A DNA stretch of 64,000 nt from Escherichia coli (GTDB taxonomy: Bacteria; Pseudomonadota; Gammaproteobacteria; Enterobacterales; Enterobacteriaceae): NCBI RefSeq assembly GCF_046105845.1, contig NZ_CP151004.1. One strand, written 5' to 3'. The notes below the pieces were generated by a model. The model worked only from the letters and a program-made list of their open reading frames with translations, was not told the origin of the DNA and did no database searches. This document shows, in pieces, positions 690-54,702 of the stretch. The position numbers and the translations under genes were made by a program. The stretch's first letter is position 1. Each line of letters opens with the position of its first letter.

Positions 690-2961
690 GGAAAACTCCC
701 CAGTGTTGCAGCGATGCCAGTGCCTGCTGTTCGAGTTGTTGATGATGTGCAATGGCTTGCGGTGGACAATGCAACGGCATTTGCAGCGCTGAAACGGGAA
801 GCTGTGTGAGCTGGTAATGCTCAAGCACCTGATGCGCCAGCGTCCCGCGTTCTCGTGGTGGTAGCCAGGCCATCGCCGCGCGTAAATCGGGCAGGGCGTT
901 AATAAAATCGTCGTCACTCAGTTGATTTAAATGACTACTGAAACCGGCGATAAATGCCGGCTGACAGGCCAGTTGATGGCGGGCCAGCGCCAGCAAACCG
1001 TGCAGCGCTTCGCCGGATTGTGCCGGGGATAATTGCGCCAGCATTGTCAGCGCCGCTTCGGCACTGGCGTTGGGATGTTCCAGACGCATTAGTGCGCCAA
1101 GAGCCGCGCCGCGATCCAGCGCCGGGGCATGAATCGCCTGACTGCGGCGCTCCAGTAAGGCTACCGCCGCAGAAAGCGAAACGCCGGGTAAATTAACGCC
1201 GCTATGTAGATCGCGCAGGATATGGCAAAGCGTCTGCCAGCTATGCAGGTGAGCGTGAAACTCCTTTTCCTCCGGTCTGCCGTTGGATTCACACAGCCAG
1301 AGTGTGCGATCGATAGCCGCGCATAACGTCGTCTGTAATATCTGCGCGCCTTGCATACCGCTAATTTCATCCAGCCGCCATAAGGCGTATAGCACTTCCA
1401 GCGCCTGGCCCATTTCGGCAAACTGATTTTCCTGGGCGATTAATAATGTAAGTTGCTCCAGTAATTGTTGACTGAAGGACGCCAGACCCGCTAACGCCGC
1501 TTGGCTAAGACATGTGGTGATACTGCCGATTCCACCCGCGTCCAGCATATCGGCTTCTAATTTATTGCGTGCGGCTTCCTGGAGTGTGGCACCAAAGCAG
1601 GCGGCCTCAATCAATGCCGCATGCTGGCTAAGCGGGCGGGTTAATTTCCAGCGTTCTTCACCGTTGCCTGCAAGTGTCAGTGTGCTTCCCTGCTGGCGTA
1701 CAACCCCTGGGATCTCCAGTATTGCCAACCGATGTAACACCTGACTTTGCGCCAGTCCATCGGGGGTAAAGCGATTTAAGGTAAGCTCCGCCGGAAGAGA
1801 GATTCCGGTACGTTCCAGTTCGCAGGTGACATCTTTTGGCAGAGGCGGTTGTGGCGTAGAAGGGGCAAGTTTACCGAATCCGTCACCCGCTAATGTGTCT
1901 ATCAACGTTAGCAGAATCGGATCGGTATCGGGATGAATAACGCCGCGATAGCTCCACGGCAGCGGCGCATTCAGGGCTTCTTTAATCAGCGAGCCTGCTA
2001 TGGCATCCAGCCAGTCAGTGCGTAACGGTAGTGTATGACCACGCAACTGTGCCAGTGCCATCGCATGCAGATGAGCGGCAGCCATATCAGCGGTAGAAGC
2101 GGGCAATTTGTGCTGGCGCAAACGGGTAAGGATAGTTTTTAGCAGTTGTTCACCGGCCTGCTGTAGGCCCCACTGCCAGCACCAGTTTTGCCAGACCGGG
2201 GCAGGCATACCAGAAAGGTATCCTGCCAGCACATCAAGGCGCTTTTCACTGTAGGGGGTGAGATAACAACCTGTAACGGCATCATCCAGTAAGAGCAATT
2301 CTGGCGTGTTAATTACCTGCGGACATTCGCGCCACATTTTTGCCAGTGCCGGAGCGTGCCAGCCACCGCAGACAACTAACACGTCGCCATTATTTTGCTG
2401 CATCGCCCATCCAATCCAGCGGGCCATAAAGGCTTCGCGCTGACGATTGAGAACATCTCCGGGGGAGTCGCCCCGCAGTTGGGCAAAATAGTGCGCAAGT
2501 GCAGAGGGTAATGCAGTTTGCTGGCTTTCATCTTCGAACAAGTGATCCCACAGGGTGTCGCTGTTATCCATGCGGGTGGCACGCAGCAGCAAGGTCTGGC
2601 TTTCCTCTTGCGTATCAGGCGAATCGTCCTCTTCTTCACTCTGCGCCCAGCAAGGCAAATCGATGAAGTAAGTTTGTGCCTGAATACGACGAGCGGCTTG
2701 TAGCGCCTGCCACTCCGGCGAAAATTCAGCAAATGGCGTCCAGGCACCACGCCCGGGGGCTACACCGTCCTGATACTGGCAATAACTGTAAATAGCTACC
2801 GGAAGCTGGTGAGCTAACAACAGTTCGTCTACCCGGTCATTAAAATCAGCCGGGCCTTCAATCAACACGTATCGTGGCCGCTGGCTTTCGATTAACGATT
2901 TCACCAGCCGGGCGCAGGCCGGACTATGATGCCGGATGCCGACAATTAACGGCTCGCTCAT
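682..2961 (-). CDS. yehM: Large uncharacterized protein of the yehLMP cluster (759 aa from internal start MSEPLIVGIRHH)
   Basis: ORF 682..3102; the 759-codon version starting at 2961 avoids overlap with the upstream gene; recognised as E. coli YehM. Confidence 0.8.
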   Translation of the reverse strand: MSEPLIVGIRHHSPACARLVKSLIESQRPRYVLIEGPADFNDRVDELLLAHQLPVAIYSYCQYQDGVAPGRGAWTPFAEFSPEWQALQAARRIQAQTYFIDLPCWAQSEEEDDSPDTQEESQTLLLRATRMDNSDTLWDHLFEDESQQTALPSALAHYFAQLRGDSPGDVLNRQREAFMARWIGWAMQQNNGDVLVVCGGWHAPALAKMWRECPQVINTPELLLLDDAVTGCYLTPYSEKRLDVLAGYLSGMPAPVWQNWCWQWGLQQAGEQLLKTILTRLRQHKLPASTADMAAAHLHAMALAQLRGHTLPLRTDWLDAIAGSLIKEALNAPLPWSYRGVIHPDTDPILLTLIDTLAGDGFGKLAPSTPQPPLPKDVTCELERTGISLPAELTLNRFTPDGLAQSQVLHRLAILEIPGVVRQQGSTLTLAGNGEERWKLTRPLSQHAALIEAACFGATLQEAARNKLEADMLDAGGIGSITTCLSQAALAGLASFSQQLLEQLTLLIAQENQFAEMGQALEVLYALWRLDEISGMQGAQILQTTLCAAIDRTLWLCESNGRPEEKEFHAHLHSWQTLCHILRDLHSGVNLPGVSLSAAVALLERRSQAIHAPALDRGAALGALMRLEHPNASAEAALTMLAQLSPAQSGEALHGLLALARHQLACQPAFIAGFSSHLNQLSDDDFINALPDLRAAMAWLPPRERGTLAHQVLEHYQLTQLPVSALQMPLHCPPQAIAHHQQLEQQALASLQHWGVFHV

Positions 2962-2971
2962 GCATCTTTCC

Positions 2972-4060
2972 TCACGGCAGGCGGTGGCGAGCTTGATAAT
3001 AAGACTGCCAGTGAGCTTCTTTATGTGTGGCGACGCGCTGTTCGAAGTAACGGCGCAGACGCGCGCGATCTTCTTCGTTATCTTTGACGATGGTTCCGGC
3101 AATACAGTCCACCAGGTCGGCAGGCTCCCCCGCGCGATTCGCTAAAAACCAGGCGCGGACACCCACAGCATGGGCCACGTTAACGGCTTCAGCGGTGGAC
3201 ATAATCGCTGTCAGTGTATCCATTGACGTTTTCTTTTCGCCGTTGGCACGCAGATCGCGGAACGTGCGCACCAGTAATTCCAGTACCGCGTCAGGCACTT
3301 TATGCGGAATACCGCTATGGGCCAGCAAACGCGCCGAAGCACTGGCGACCAGTTCGAGCTCCTGGGCGAAATCCATAATCGGAAAGACAGTTTCAAAATC
3401 GAAGCGACGCTTTAGCGCAGCACTCATTTCATTGACGCCGCGATCGCGGGTATTGGCAGTGGCAATAATATTAAAGCCTTCCCGCGCATAGAGCTGACTG
3501 GCTTCACCAGTGAGTTCCGGCACCGTCATTACCCTGTCAGAAAGCATACCTAACAGACAGTCTTGTACTTCCAGCGGTGTACGCGTTATCTCTTCAAAAC
3601 GGACAATTTTGCCGTCGCGCATTCCCTGGTAAAGCGGGGCTGGGACCAGCGCTTCCGTTGACGGACCATGGTTGATAAGCAGGGCGTAGTTCCAGCCGTA
3701 CTTGATTTGATCTTCGGTGGTAGATGCGCCGCCCTGGATGGTTAACCCGGCATCGCCGCTAATAGCGGTTGCCAGTAATTCAGACAGGAGAGATTTTGCG
3801 GTACCCGGTTCCCCCACCAACATCAAACCGCGCCCGGTGGCAAGAGTGACTAACATACGTTCGACAGCGGAGGGACTAATCACCACTTTACGGCTAATAT
3901 TTTGCGCGCTATCGCCAAGGATAAAAGCACGGGCCGCAGGCAAACTTAACTGCCAACCGGGCGGGCAAGGTGCGTTATCATTTTGTTTTAATTTTGCCAG
4001 TTCATCGGCGTATAACACAGCAGCAGGCGGACGCTGCAGATGATTATTCTGCGGTGACAT
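2972..4060 (-). CDS. yehL: MoxR-like AAA+ ATPase (Walker A GEPGTAKS)
   Basis: ORF 2972..4126; 362-codon version starts MSPQNNHLQ at 4060; P-loop motif visible. Confidence 0.85.
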   Translation of the reverse strand: MSPQNNHLQRPPAAVLYADELAKLKQNDNAPCPPGWQLSLPAARAFILGDSAQNISRKVVISPSAVERMLVTLATGRGLMLVGEPGTAKSLLSELLATAISGDAGLTIQGGASTTEDQIKYGWNYALLINHGPSTEALVPAPLYQGMRDGKIVRFEEITRTPLEVQDCLLGMLSDRVMTVPELTGEASQLYAREGFNIIATANTRDRGVNEMSAALKRRFDFETVFPIMDFAQELELVASASARLLAHSGIPHKVPDAVLELLVRTFRDLRANGEKKTSMDTLTAIMSTAEAVNVAHAVGVRAWFLANRAGEPADLVDCIAGTIVKDNEEDRARLRRYFEQRVATHKEAHWQSYYQARHRLP

Positions 4061-4138: not shown

Positions 4139-4628
4139 CGGAAAATATCTGGAAAGCAGATCACAGTAAATAAAAAAACCTGCTGGTGAGGCAGGTTCTT
4201 TTATTTACTATTTTCAGGCCCAACACCGCAGCCTGTGCAACATCGTGTTCCAACGAACGAATTATAACCATCGGTGGACCCCGTTGCAATTAAGATAATG
4301 AGATTTATAATCCAGACGGTTGGGACGTTGCGCCGGATCGGACCAATTTCAAGTCCTGGCTACCGGACGGGTGGTGCTGCAGGTGGTGCCCTGATCCGGA
4401 GTGCAACATCGTGGTCCAACATACGTAAACCAGTATCGACAGGCAGTGTAAGGGTAAGGTGCTGGTGTTGCGCTCCTTAATAAGGAGAGCGGATGGACAC
4501 GCAGACACAAAAGTTAACCGTGCTCATTGCTGTACTGGAGCTATTAGTGGCTCTGTTACGGTTGATTGATTTGTTGAAGTAATGGGCAAATTGAAACGCA
4601 TCTAAGGGGGAATACCGCTTCCCCCTTT
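4139..4628 (+). repeat. Type I toxin-antitoxin repeat unit 1 (zor/orz-like), about 490 bp
   Basis: Near-identical to unit 2 at 4751..5240; begins gaaaatatctggaaag, ends with hairpin aagggggaataccgcttccccctt. Confidence 0.7.
4493..4582 (+). CDS. 29-aa hydrophobic type I toxin peptide MDTQTQKLTVLIAVLELLVALLRLIDLLK (ZorO/ZorP-like)
   Basis: AGGAGA ribosome-binding site 7 nt upstream of ATG; absent from ORF track because it is under 60 aa; sequence recalled from memory as Zor-family. Confidence 0.6.
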   Translation: MDTQTQKLTVLIAVLELLVALLRLIDLLK

Positions 4629-4750: not shown

Positions 4751-5240
4751 AAAAATATCTGGAAAGTAGATCGCAGAAAATAAAAGAACCTGCTGGTGAG
4801 GCAGGTTCTTTTATTTACTACTTTGATGTTAAGTTACTGATAGTGCAACATGGCATCTCAACGAACGAATTATAACCACCGCTGGACCGTGTTGCAATTA
4901 AGATAATGAGATTTATAATCCTGACTGTTGGGAAGTTGCGCCGGATCGAACCCATTTCAAGTCCTGGCTACCGGACGGGTGGTGCCGCAGGTAGTGCTCT
5001 GATCCGGAGTGCAACATGGCGACTCAACATACGTAAATCAGTATCGACAGGCAGTGTAAGGGTAAGGTGCTGGTGTTGCGCTCCTTAATAAGGAGAGCGG
5101 ATGGACACGCTGACACAAAAGTTAACCGTGCTCATTGCCGTACTGGAGCTATTAGTGGCTCTGTTACGGTTGATTGATTTGTTGAAGTAATGGGCAAATT
5201 GAAACGCAACTAAGGGGGAAAACCGCTTCCCCCTTTAATA
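4751..5240 (+). repeat. Type I toxin-antitoxin repeat unit 2 (zor/orz-like)
   Basis: Tandem copy of unit 1 with scattered substitutions; terminal hairpin overlaps the 3' end of yehK. Confidence 0.7.
5101..5190 (+). CDS. 29-aa hydrophobic type I toxin peptide MDTLTQKLTVLIAVLELLVALLRLIDLLK (ZorO/ZorP-like)
   Basis: Same ribosome-binding site and frame as copy 1; one Q/L difference at residue 4. Confidence 0.6.
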   Translation: MDTLTQKLTVLIAVLELLVALLRLIDLLK

Positions 5241-22736: not shown

Positions 22737-23561
22737 TTATCGCATTATGCCCATAAAGCCATGCACACCCATATACACACCAACTAAGCCAATCAACAGA
22801 CTGGAAAAATAGGGGGCGCGTTTAGCGAGAGTGTTAAATCCGCTCCAGCGTTTTGCGACCTGCTGAACGCTGATTGCTGCGCCAACGCCTACGGTGACAA
22901 GCGTTAACGCCAGGCCAATGCTGAAACTGACGACCAGTGTTGCGCCCAGTGTCAGGGCTTTCAACTGAATGCAAATCAACAGCACGGTAATTGCTGCCGG
23001 GCAGGGGATAAGACCACCTGTTAAGCCAAATAGCAAAATTTGCCAGTTGGTGACCTCTCTACCATCAAAGCGTCGTTTAATGTCATTGGCATGGGCTCGT
23101 GCATGGGCATCCTGATACTCGCCATGTTCGTGATGGTGATGATGTCCATGGTCGTGGTGATCTTCGTGATCATGGTGATGATGCTCATGATCATGCCCGT
23201 GCATATTCTCCAGCCAGTTGCGTTCGCCGCGCCAGGTACGCCAGAACATCCAGAACGCGGTGCCAATAATGATCACCGCGGAAATCAACTGGAGCCACGG
23301 TTCCGCCGACTGCGTAGTAAAGCGTTTGCTGATCACCATCCCGCCAAAGGCAATCAACCAGACCACCGCGGTATGCGAAATGGTTGCTGCCAGTCCGAGC
23401 ATCACCGCCTGTTTAATGGTGCCTTTGATGGCGATGATAAACGCCGCCATCATCGTTTTTGAGTGCCCTGGTTCCAGGCCATGAAGCGCACCAAGTAAGA
23501 TGGCGCTGGGGATGAAGAACCAGGCGTTTCCTTGCTGAAGAAGAGTGGTAAATTCGGTCAT
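22737..23561 (-). CDS. rcnA: Nickel/cobalt efflux permease with His-rich loop
   Basis: 274 aa; loop HGHDHEHHHHDHEDHHDHGHHHHHEHGEY. Confidence 0.95.
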   Translation of the reverse strand: MTEFTTLLQQGNAWFFIPSAILLGALHGLEPGHSKTMMAAFIIAIKGTIKQAVMLGLAATISHTAVVWLIAFGGMVISKRFTTQSAEPWLQLISAVIIIGTAFWMFWRTWRGERNWLENMHGHDHEHHHHDHEDHHDHGHHHHHEHGEYQDAHARAHANDIKRRFDGREVTNWQILLFGLTGGLIPCPAAITVLLICIQLKALTLGATLVVSFSIGLALTLVTVGVGAAISVQQVAKRWSGFNTLAKRAPYFSSLLIGLVGVYMGVHGFMGIMR

Positions 23562-23681: not shown

Positions 23682-23954
23682 ATGTCTCATACAATCCGTG
23701 ATAAACAGAAACTGAAAGCGCGTGCCAGTAAGATTCAGGGCCAGGTCGTGGCGCTCAAGAAAATGCTCGACGAGCCGCACGAATGCGCTGCAGTTTTACA
23801 ACAGATTGCTGCTATCCGTGGCGCGGTAAACGGTCTGATGCGGGAAGTGATTAAAGGTCATCTGACGGAACACATCGTTCACCAGGGGGATGAGCTAAAA
23901 CGTGAAGAAGATCTGGATGTCGTTCTGAAGGTGCTGGATTCATATATCAAATAA
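23682..23954 (+). CDS. rcnR: Ni/Co-responsive transcriptional repressor (CsoR/RcnR family)
   Basis: 90-aa ORF divergent from rcnA. Confidence 0.95.
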
Positions 23955-24039
23955 TTTATTAACGCGATTGTAAAACTGCCGGTTTTCCTCGTTTACAACG
24001 CGTGCGCTGGACATTACCATCCTCCTCTGCGATTTATCA

Positions 24040-24176
24040 TCGCAACCAAACGACTCGGGGTGCCCTTCTGCGTGAAGGCTGAGAAATACCCGTATCACCT
24101 GATCTGGATAATGCCAGCGTAGGGAAGTCACGGACCACCAGGTCATTGCTTCTTCACGTTATGGCAGGAGCAAACT
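24040..24176 (+). ncRNA. TPP (thi-box) riboswitch in the thiM leader
   Basis: Contains ctggggtgcccttctgcgtgaaggctgagaaatacccgtatcacctgatctggataatgccagcgtaggga immediately upstream of thiM. Confidence 0.9.
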
Positions 24177-24965
24177 ATGCAAGTCGACCTGCTGAGTTCC
24201 GCGCAATCTGCGCACGCGTTACACCTTTTTCACCAACATTCCCCTCTTGTGCACTGCATGACCAACGATGTGGTGCAAACCTTTACTGCCAATACCTTGC
24301 TGGCGCTCGGTGCATCGCCAGCGATGGTTATCGAAACCGAAGAGGCCAGTCAGTTTGCGGCTATCGCCAGTGCGTTGCTGATTAACGTTGGCACGCTGAC
24401 GCAGCCACGCGCACAGGCGATGCGTGCCGCCGTTGAACAGGCAAAACGCTCTCAAACACCCTGGACGCTTGATCCAGTAGCGGTGGGTGCACTCGACTAT
24501 CGCCGCCGTTTTTGTCTGGAACTTCTGTCTCATAAGCCAACCGCCATACGTGGTAATGCTTCGGAAATCATGGCATTAGCTGGCATTGCTAATGGCGGAC
24601 GGGGAGTGGATACCACTGACGCCGCAGCTAATGCGATACCCGCTGCACAAACACTGGCACGGGAAACTGGCGCAATCGTCGTGGTCACAGGCGAGGTGGA
24701 TTATGTTACCGATGGTCATTGCACCGTTGGCATTCACGGTGGCGATCCGCTAATGACCAAAGTGGTAGGAACTGGCTGTGCATTATCGGCGGTTGTCGCT
24801 GCCTGTTGTGCGTTACCAGGCGATACGCTGGAAAATATCGCATCTGCCTGTCACTGGATGAAACAAGCCGGAGAACGCGCAGTCGCCAGAAGCGAGGGGC
24901 CAGGCAGTTTTGTTCCACATTTCCTTGATGCGCTCTGGCAATTGACGCAGGAGGTGCAGGCGTGA
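24177..24965 (+). CDS. thiM: Hydroxyethylthiazole kinase
   Basis: 262 aa; follows the thi-box. Confidence 0.95.
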
Positions 24966-25762
24966 AACGAATTAACGCTCTGACGATTGCTGGTACTGAT
25001 CCGAGTGGTGGTGCGGGGATTCAGGCCGATCTTAAAACCTTCTCGGCACTTGGCGCTTATGGTTGCTCAGTGATTACTGCACTGGTGGCGCAAAATACCC
25101 GTGGCGTACAGTCGGTGTATCGCATTGAGCCTGATTTTGTCGCCGCCCAGCTCGATTCGGTGTTCAGCGATGTGCGAATCGATACCACTAAAATCGGTAT
25201 GTTGGCGGAAACCGATATTGTTGAAGCGGTGGCAGAACGGTTGCAACGTTATCAGATCCAAAACGTGGTACTCGACACCGTTATGCTGGCAAAAAGCGGC
25301 GACCCGCTGCTTTCACCTTCGGCGGTTGCTACGCTGCGCAGTCGATTATTGCCACAGGTTTCATTAATAACGCCAAACTTGCCCGAAGCTGCCGCCTTGC
25401 TCGACGCGCCACACGCGCGCACCGAACAGGAAATGCTGGAACAAGGGCGATCGCTGTTGGCGATGGGCTGTGGCGCAGTGCTAATGAAAGGTGGTCATCT
25501 GGATGATGAGCAAAGCCCGGACTGGCTGTTTACTCGTGAGGGGGAACAACGATTTACTGCACCGCGCATTATGACCAAAAACACCCACGGCACTGGTTGT
25601 ACGCTCTCTGCGGCGTTGGCTGCACTACGCCCGCGCCATACAAACTGGGCTGACACCGTACAGGAGGCAAAAAGCTGGCTTTCATCGGCGTTAGCCCAGG
25701 CCGACACGCTGGAAGTTGGTCACGGTATTGGTCCGGTTCACCACTTCCACGCCTGGTGGTGA
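24962..25762 (+). CDS. thiD: Hydroxymethylpyrimidine/phosphomethylpyrimidine kinase
   Basis: 266 aa; 4-bp overlap with thiM. Confidence 0.95.
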
Positions 25763-40312: not shown

Positions 40313-40339
40313 AAAAAATAAGCCCGTGTAAGGGAGATT
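40313..40339. other. Bacteriophage P2 attachment core sequence (unoccupied att site)
   Basis: Exact match to the 27-nt core aaaaaataagcccgtgtaagggagatt as recalled; no flanking prophage genes. Confidence 0.6.
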
Positions 40340-40483
40340 ACACAGGCTAAGGAGGTGGTTCCTGGTACAGCTAGCATTTTATGGGTTATGTTTTTCAGCG
40401 AAACGGATGATAACCTTAATAAATGCAGCTGTATGTGATCGGTTTCTAAGAATTTTCCATCCGGGAAAAATAATCGAAATTAA

Positions 40484-53689: not shown

Positions 53690-53850
53690 TAAGCCGATGA
53701 TTTCAGCGGGACGCTGAAACGGGAAAGCCCCTCCCGAGGAAGGGGCCATAAATAAGGAAAGGGTCATGATGAAGCTACTCATCATCGTGGTGCTCTTAGT
53801 CATTAGCTGGCCAGCTTACTAAGACTACCAGGGCGGGGGAAACCCCGCTC
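53690..53850 (-). ncRNA. Sib-type antisense sRNA antitoxin, copy 1 (approximate ends)
   Basis: Inferred from known ibs/sib architecture; hairpins flank the ibs ORF. Confidence 0.45.
53766..53822 (+). CDS. Ibs-family toxin peptide MMKLLIIVVLLVISWPAY
   Basis: 18-aa hydrophobic ORF with AGGAAAGGG ribosome-binding site; not in ORF track. Confidence 0.75.
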   Translation: MMKLLIIVVLLVISWPAY

Positions 53851-54019
53851 TACCCTCACTCCTGAAAGTATGCCTTCACGATAAGATTGTCAATCTGCAG
53901 GCTTTGCAGTCTGCGATCCTGCCAGCAAATATTCTTTGCGAGACGTTACGCAATAATCACACTGGAAACTATTTTATCCGCAAGTCAGCGATAGACTGCA
54001 TTCAGGGCGAAAGGAGGTA

Positions 54020-54180
54020 AGCCGACGATTTCAGCGGGACGCTGAAACGGGAAAGCCCCTCCCGAGGAAGGGGCCTTAAATAAGGAAAGGGTCATGATGA
54101 AGATACTCATCATCGTGGTGCTCTTAGTGATTAGCTACCCAGCATACTAAGACTACCAGGGCGGGGGAAACCCCGCTCTA
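54020..54180 (-). ncRNA. Sib-type antisense sRNA antitoxin, copy 2 (approximate ends)
   Basis: Inferred from repeat architecture. Confidence 0.45.
54094..54150 (+). CDS. Ibs-family toxin peptide MMKILIIVVLLVISYPAY
   Basis: Second repeat unit, same architecture. Confidence 0.75.
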   Translation: MMKILIIVVLLVISYPAY

Positions 54181-54349
54181 CCCTCACTCCTGAAATTATG
54201 CCTTCACGATAAGATTGTCAATCCGCAGGCTTTGCAGTCTGCGATCCTGCCAGCAAATATTCTTTGCGAGTCGTTACGCAATAATCACAGAGGAAACTAT
54301 TTTATTCACGCGTTAGCGATAGACTGCATTCAGGGCGAAAGGAGGTAAG

Positions 54350-54510
54350 CCGACGATTTCAGCGGGACGCTGAAACGGGAAACCCTCTCCCGGAGAAGAG
54401 GGCTTTTAATAAGGAAAGGGTTATGATGAAGCACGTCATCATACTGGTGATACTCTTAGTGATTAGCTTCCAGGCTTACTAAGAACACCAGGGGGAGGGG
54501 GAAACCTCTC
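54350..54510 (-). ncRNA. Sib-type antisense sRNA antitoxin, copy 3 (approximate ends)
   Basis: Inferred from repeat architecture. Confidence 0.45.
54423..54482 (+). CDS. ibsA: Ibs-family toxin peptide MMKHVIILVILLVISFQAY
   Basis: Third repeat unit; peptide matches recalled K-12 IbsA. Confidence 0.75.
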   Translation: MMKHVIILVILLVISFQAY

Positions 54511-54702
54511 CCTAACCCTCACTCCTGAAATTATGTCACTCCGCCCTTAGTGTCAATCGACGGCTCTCCGTTCTTGCGAGGCGAATAGCAAAATTTTCTG
54601 CGCCGCCGGGCCTAATTCTGAAAGTTTCTTCGTTTGCTCTTATTTCATTATTGCAATCGGTATGATACCGGACCTCGATAATTCTCTAAGAAAGGATTTC
54701 TT

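Follow-up and report, generated by a model that had tools for sequence, protein, structure and literature searches.

The leader of the thiMD operon in an Escherichia coli chromosome segment carries the TPP riboswitch known from strain K-12

The window, i.e. the whole stretch of 64,000 nucleotides of E. coli DNA that was analysed (contig NZ_CP151004.1), contains thiM and thiD preceded by rcnA and rcnR, in the same gene order as the rcnR-thiMD locus of E. coli K-12. Downstream of thiMD follow genes for a GH25 protein (yegX by comparison with RefSeq) and a GntR/UTRA regulator (yegW). The features of the locus are the following:

22737-23561, - strand: rcnA, upstream of the riboswitch
23682-23954, + strand: rcnR, upstream of the riboswitch
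23992-24020, + strand: promoter-like site of thiMD, with the -35 hexamer TTTACA (23992-23997), a 17-nt spacer and the -10 hexamer TACCAT (24015-24020)
24046-24142, + strand: TPP aptamer (THI element, RF00059), located by cmscan and annotated by RefSeq at the equivalent place in other E. coli
24177-24965, + strand: thiM, the regulated gene, encoding hydroxyethylthiazole kinase (TIGR00694, 334.7 bits; cutoff, 256.4)
24962-25762, + strand: thiD, HMP / HMP-P kinase, the second gene of the operon (TIGR00097, 362.6 bits against a cutoff of 204.95)

The thiM open reading frame of 262 amino acids starts with the ATG at 24177, and the GTG start of thiD overlaps the thiM stop by 4 nt; the gene boundaries in RefSeq agree. 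The promoter-like site was the only one found in a consensus scan, compared with 0.4 expected. Transcription probably starts at about 24027, 7 nt past the -10 hexamer, because the RBS mutant G142C and the AUG mutant U152A of a published study (PMC5499598) correspond, in the numbering of that study, to G24168 and U24178 of the window. It should be noted that 23982, which lies 10 nt before the -35 hexamer, is a G in the window and a T in K-12 MG1655 and in two other E. coli genomes that were compared base by base.

A search with cmscan (Rfam 15) matched RF00059 (TPP) to 24046-24142 on the + strand with a score of 71.2 bits, compared with a gathering score of 54.3, and the match spans the full model (positions 1-105 of 105). 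The E-value was 5.1e-12 when the entire 64 kb were scanned with 4227 families and 3.2e-14 in a local rerun, so that a chance match is excluded, and no second match to RF00059 was obtained in the 64 kb. In the local alignment all conserved thi-box positions match, and the optional P3a stem is absent. A sequence-only reading of this DNA had claimed a TPP riboswitch in the thiMD leader, had quoted a canonical thi-box and had named a covariance-model scan as the way to check the claim. The scan, together with the location of thiM and thiD directly downstream on the same strand, bears out the claim, and the quoted string, ctgagaaatacccgtatcacctgatctggataatgccagcgtaggga (47 nt), has one exact copy in the window, at 24079-24125. 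The conserved CUGAGA is found exactly at 24079-24084 and ACCUGAUCUGGAUAAUGCCAGCGUAGGGAA exactly at 24097-24126; in the crystal structures, the former belongs to the pyrimidine-sensor arm and the latter to the pyrophosphate-sensor arm. The THI element sits in the sense-strand 5' leader of a thiamine gene, the end of the aptamer lying 34 nt before the thiM ATG, with thiD as the next gene. A match of the family Ms_IGR-8 to 23951-23986 was discarded as chance (15.5 bits against a gathering score of 44, E-value 0.62).

The leader 24027-24176 is identical to that of K-12 MG1655 (NC_000913.3) at 150 of 150 nt. The differences between the window and MG1655 are distributed as follows:

rcnR, 23682-23954: 0 of 273 nt
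5' part of the intergenic region, 23955-24026: 1 of 72 nt (23982, G instead of T)
inferred start to aptamer, 24027-24045: 0 of 19 nt
aptamer, 24046-24142: 0 of 97 nt
expression platform, 24143-24176: 0 of 34 nt
thiM coding sequence, 24177-24965: 40 of 789 nt (11 amino acids)

Thus, the riboswitch of the window is the same molecule as the one that has been studied experimentally in K-12. The two have the flanking genes rcnR, thiM and thiD, the aptamer helices, the anti-SD/SD helix and the alternative helix in common, and there is no difference in the riboswitch; only position 23982 upstream of it and the thiM coding sequence differ. The TPP riboswitch of K-12 thiM was reportedly described by Winkler, Nahvi and Breaker in 2002, and crystal structures of the thiM aptamer are said to have been published in 2006. 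The element is already known and is among the most thoroughly characterised riboswitches, it shows no departure from the published description, and no open question is touched. The value of its identification lies in correct annotation, with thiMD marked as repressed by TPP in translation and with secondary Rho termination, and the riboswitch anchors the window as a segment of the E. coli chromosome with the K-12 gene order rcnR-thiMD-yegX. RefSeq annotates a "TPP riboswitch" at equivalent coordinates in other E. coli genomes; the MG1655 record itself (NC_000913.3, 2184000-2186200) has no riboswitch feature in the rcnR-thiM spacer, while genomes annotated with PGAP have one.

The aptamer and the expression platform are composed of the following elements, the helices P1 to P5 being taken from the Rfam alignment:

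24052-24055 with 24126-24129, + strand: P1
24056-24059 and 24061 with 24086 and 24089-24092, + strand: P2
24062-24064 and 24066-24068 with 24074-24079, + strand: P3, re-registered around the bulged C24065
24098-24101 with 24120-24123, + strand: P4
24104-24107 with 24114-24117, + strand: P5
24079-24125, + strand: thi-box core, CUGAGA ... ACCUGAUCUGGAUAAUGCCAGCGUAGGGA, an exact single match
24133-24144, + strand: linker hairpin between aptamer and anti-SD, in which GACC (24133-24136) pairs with GGUC (24141-24144)
24146-24153, + strand: anti-SD UUGCUUCU, the mobile strand of the switch, from folding
24166-24173, + strand: ribosome-binding site AGGAGCAA, with the Shine-Dalgarno core GGAG at 24167-24170
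24112-24130 with 24147-24166, + strand: alternative ON (anti-sequestering) helix, from the unconstrained MFE structure

Standard pairs are formed in the window sequence by 23 of the 24 modelled pairs of the aptamer. The Shine-Dalgarno sequence AGGAG (24166-24170) ends 6 nt before the thiM ATG at 24177, and its G24168 is G142, the site of the RBS mutant in PMC5499598. The linker hairpin is present in the unconstrained fold, whereas the aptamer-enforced MFE structure pairs the same bases with the thiM coding sequence. G24141 and G24142 of this hairpin correspond to G100 and G101, and the mutation M4 at these positions abolishes control (PMC1920254).

Unconstrained folding of 24040-24195 yielded an MFE of -44.9 kcal/mol and a structure in which the 3' half of the aptamer (24112-24130) is paired with 24147-24166, the anti-SD nucleotides 24147-24154 pairing with 24122-24130 of the aptamer. 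In the free ensemble, the Shine-Dalgarno sequence is mostly open, with probabilities of being unpaired of about 0.8 for G24167, G24168 and A24169. When the aptamer was enforced, the fold had -37.9 kcal/mol, UUGCUUCU (24146-24153) was paired with AGGAGCAA (24166-24173), and the probability of being unpaired was at most 0.01 for 24167-24171. A comparison of the free and the enforced folds shows that pairing of the anti-SD with the SD and with the 3' half of the aptamer is mutually exclusive, and the gap of about 7 kcal/mol between the two folds could be offset by the tight binding of a ligand. The MFE of the leader was no stabler than that of shuffled sequences (z = -0.25), which is uninformative and is usual for a bistable RNA.

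The chemical probing model of Rentmeister et al. (PMC1920254) has nt 71-86 paired with nt 108-125 in the TPP-free state and the SD at nt 126-129. With nt 1 of that study set to 24042, these positions and the site of M4 map to 24112-24127, 24149-24166, 24167-24170 and G24141/G24142, with all bases correct, and both predicted helices coincide nucleotide for nucleotide with the probing model. Selective binding of TPP has been demonstrated by experiment for the identical K-12 sequence (PMC1920254 and references within) and would be expected of the aptamer of the window. Judged from the sequence, everything testable that defines RF00059 and the thiM-type translational platform appears to be present. 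The further claim of the sequence-only reading, that a region sequestering the ribosome-binding site precedes the thiM start, agrees with the pairing of the anti-SD and the ribosome-binding site that is predicted for the folded aptamer, and with the identity of the leader to that of K-12, in which the mechanism was demonstrated by experiment (PMC1920254, PMC5499598). Its range of 24040-24176 encloses the aptamer and the entire expression platform, the start of the transcript probably lying slightly upstream, at about 24027.

TPP has an additional effect in K-12, i.e. it lowers the level of thiM mRNA via Rho-dependent termination, for which codons 20-34 of thiM are needed (Bastet et al., PMC5499598). 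A rut site was located at nt 201-210 and termination at 231, 237 and 262; RBS and AUG mutants lose the mRNA regardless of TPP, and termination by Rho is accordingly reported to result from the block of translation (PMC5499598). In the same study, transcriptional fusions with the K-12 leader and six codons were insensitive to TPP, whereas the respective translational fusions responded. By the numbering of PMC5499598, these elements map to the window as follows:

24234-24278, + strand: published Rho module, codons 20-34
24227-24236, + strand: rut site
24257, 24263 and 24288, + strand: Rho termination sites

The module is assumed to work in the thiM of the window as it does in K-12, the coding sequences differing at 40 of 789 nt. 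Four of the substitutions are within codons 1-40 and one of these (24266) is inside codons 20-34; that the Rho-dependent layer differs quantitatively in a lineage with a rare diverged thiM allele is conceivable, but quite unlikely.

From these results, the following course of events can be proposed. Transcription would begin at about 24027, and the five helices of the TPP aptamer (24046-24142) would form in the 5' leader. When TPP is scarce, the aptamer segment 24112-24130 would pair with 24147-24166, which includes the anti-SD, the SD at 24166-24170 would be free, and thiM and thiD would be translated. Binding of TPP would lock P1, P4 and P5, and the liberated anti-SD UUGCUUCU would pair with AGGAGCAA (24166-24173), blocking the binding of the 30S subunit. 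A C-rich rut site near the beginning of the coding sequence would then become exposed in the untranslated thiM mRNA, Rho would terminate at about codons 20-34, and the level of thiMD mRNA would fall. In this scheme family membership, gene context, K-12 identity, the mutually exclusive pairings and their conservation were computed here, and the binding of TPP, the repression of translation and the Rho-dependent step are taken from the literature on the identical sequence.

Terminator-type thi-box riboswitches of Firmicutes, for example those of the thiamine genes of Bacillus subtilis, have the same thi-box aptamer and the same ligand, TPP, but form an intrinsic terminator upon TPP binding, and this type is common among the TPP riboswitches of that group. 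A genuine aptamer might also act in the thiMD leader mainly on transcription, via an intrinsic terminator or via direct ligand-controlled loading of Rho, instead of sequestering the ribosome-binding site, and the decrease of thiM mRNA with TPP and the termination by Rho within thiM (PMC5499598) could be read in this way. However, this is very improbable. A terminator-type platform was rejected because 0 terminator-like sites were found in 23900-24250, and from the aptamer to 24250 there is no terminator-like hairpin followed by a T run; in contrast to the Firmicutes type, the platform of the window acts on the ribosome-binding site, and the lack of an intrinsic terminator fits translational control. 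Furthermore, the anti-SD/SD helix is both predicted and conserved, and the loss of mRNA in RBS and AUG mutants whatever the TPP level shows that Rho termination follows from the repression of translation (PMC5499598). The region is almost certainly the TPP riboswitch of the E. coli thiMD operon, with a translational block and secondary termination by Rho, and no evidence contradicting the identification as a riboswitch was found in any of the analyses.

The conservation of the pairings was analysed by searching a single genome of each species with a sequence pattern, and at least 120 loci were obtained. Among the matches listed, the thi-box is followed at 94 of 120 loci, at a distance of about 50 nt and in the same orientation, by the start of a ThiM homologue. 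A MAFFT alignment was made of 92 distinct leaders from other Enterobacterales and that of the window, i.e. of 93 leaders. The search pattern fixed 45 thi-box bases, including CUGAGA, ACCC and the 3' half of the aptamer, so that no variation was possible in P4, in P5 or in the aptamer strand of the ON helix. CUGAGA and ACCC, both fixed in this way, are invariant in all 93 leaders, as are P1, P2, P4 and P5, in part as a result of how the set was collected; the invariance of P4, P5 and the GGGAAG strand was rejected as evidence for conservation because it is an artefact of the collection by pattern.

Compensatory changes were found at three pairs of P3, i.e. UA to CG in 15 leaders, UA to AU in 8, and CG to UA or GC in 14. 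For the OFF structure, 88.6% of the cells in the 93 leaders are standard pairs, compared with 37-56% when the 3' partners are slid by one to three columns, and 14 of its pairs have changes on both sides. The GGAG of the SD is nearly invariant, and the CUUC core of the anti-SD can pair with the SD in 88-92 of the 93 leaders and with the GAAG of the aptamer, as in the ON structure, in 89-93. The sequence of the linker hairpin varies across species and the hairpin is kept (e.g. GAUGCC..GGCAUC and GACAC..GUGUC), three of its four pairs having changes on both sides in the 93 leaders, in a part that is poorly aligned. The linker hairpin and the outer pairs of the SD helix were set aside as support because of the poor MAFFT alignment, with 66-73% of the cells paired, and the core pairs were used.

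Equilibrium folding was also applied to the 92 homologous leaders. The median probability of the SD being unpaired was 0.28 in the free and 0.25 in the aptamer-enforced state, and only nine leaders differed by at least 0.3, in a calculation that is a weak proxy and depends on the fragment ends and on equilibrium assumptions. Enforcing the aptamer clearly lowers the SD accessibility of the window and of its close relatives, and in the absence of a general difference among the 92 leaders, the thermodynamic model clearly supports the switch only for the E. coli-type sequence.

On the - strand, an ATG-initiated open reading frame of 68 amino acids exists at 23940-24146, and a protein encoded antisense to the leader might be what conserves the sequence. 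This is hardly credible, since the frame belongs to no Pfam family and is unannotated in the RefSeq records inspected, and the conservation across species follows the RNA helices, with compensatory changes and with loop indels that would break the reading frame; the frame itself is probably spurious. A resemblance due to chance, or a decayed relic without function, for which the failure of the leader MFE to exceed that of shuffles is the sole weak point, has a vanishingly small probability given the E-value of 5e-12 over the full RF00059 model, the 100% identity to the experimentally validated K-12 element, the conservation of the leader in 5424 of 5426 complete E. coli genomes and its position ahead of thiM at 94 of the 120 species loci among the matches listed.

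At 26 of the 120 loci among the matches listed, the same 31-nt 3' half of the thi-box is present, but the 1.5 kb that follow on that strand contain no ThiM homologue, a few of these loci ending only 100-500 nt past the thi-box match. They include loci from Photorhabdus, Xenorhabdus, Proteus, Providencia and Erysipelotrichaceae MAGs, and are presumably TPP riboswitches of other thiamine genes.

Within E. coli, the genome count given above was obtained with a 246-nt leader query, for which no complete genome had 100% identity, the best value being 99.6%. An identity of at least 99% over the riboswitch and thiM was found in 57 of the 5424 complete genomes, compared with 3499 for the leader alone. 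The differences of thiM from K-12 are clustered at nt 200-400 and 500-600 of the coding sequence, whereas rcnR and the leader differ at 1 of 495 nt. To judge from these sequences, the divergent thiM behind a common leader may represent either a mosaic produced by recombination or a rare allele.

Two E. coli strains deviate upstream of or within the aptamer. In O55:H7 DEC5E (locus 1400-1520, equivalent to 23942-24062 of the window), homology to the window begins only at 24043, and the place of rcnR, rcnA and the thiM promoter of the K-12 type is taken by unrelated DNA with hypothetical genes, which extends to the 5' edge of the aptamer. The leader query is covered to less than 80% by about 700 genomes, in which the arrangement may be the same. 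In the strain 'ExPEC' (NZ_CM172609.1, locus 1420-3068), unrelated sequence replaces the 5' two-thirds of the aptamer, and homology resumes at about 24102 (AATGCCAGCG...), so that P1 to P3 are lost together with the 5' strands of P4 and P5; anti-SD, SD and thiM are retained, and no riboswitch is annotated there. This loss was likely caused by an IS3 insertion, because the breakpoint is preceded, at a distance of about 440 nt, by the end of an IS3-family transposase gene.

The thiC and thiB (tbpA) riboswitches of E. coli belong to the same class, RF00059, and bind the same ligand, and they are also reported to repress translation initiation (PMC5234074, PMC11487190, PMC10578472). They are located at other loci outside the window and have other expression platforms; for thiC, a regulatory pause and the action of Rho within the leader are reported in addition.

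Further regulatory RNAs were detected elsewhere in the window:

4172-4247 and 4782-4855, - strand: OrzO-P antitoxin sRNAs (RF02083, 101 and 90 bits)
40316-40401, - strand: CyaR/RyeE sRNA (RF00112, 100.7 bits)
53751-53893, 54079-54221 and 54408-54556, - strand: SIB RNAs (RF00113)

The zor-orz type I toxin-antitoxin locus was described in O157:H7 and is not known to occur in K-12, and the presence of the OrzO-P sRNAs thus indicates that the window is not from K-12, although its thiM leader is identical to that of K-12. The SIB antitoxin RNAs form a tandem array of three on the - strand, about 330 nt apart and with scores of 140-150 bits each. K-12 has two SIB RNAs, sibA and sibB, at the equivalent locus, and the strain may carry an extra copy of the Ibs/Sib type I toxin-antitoxin system.
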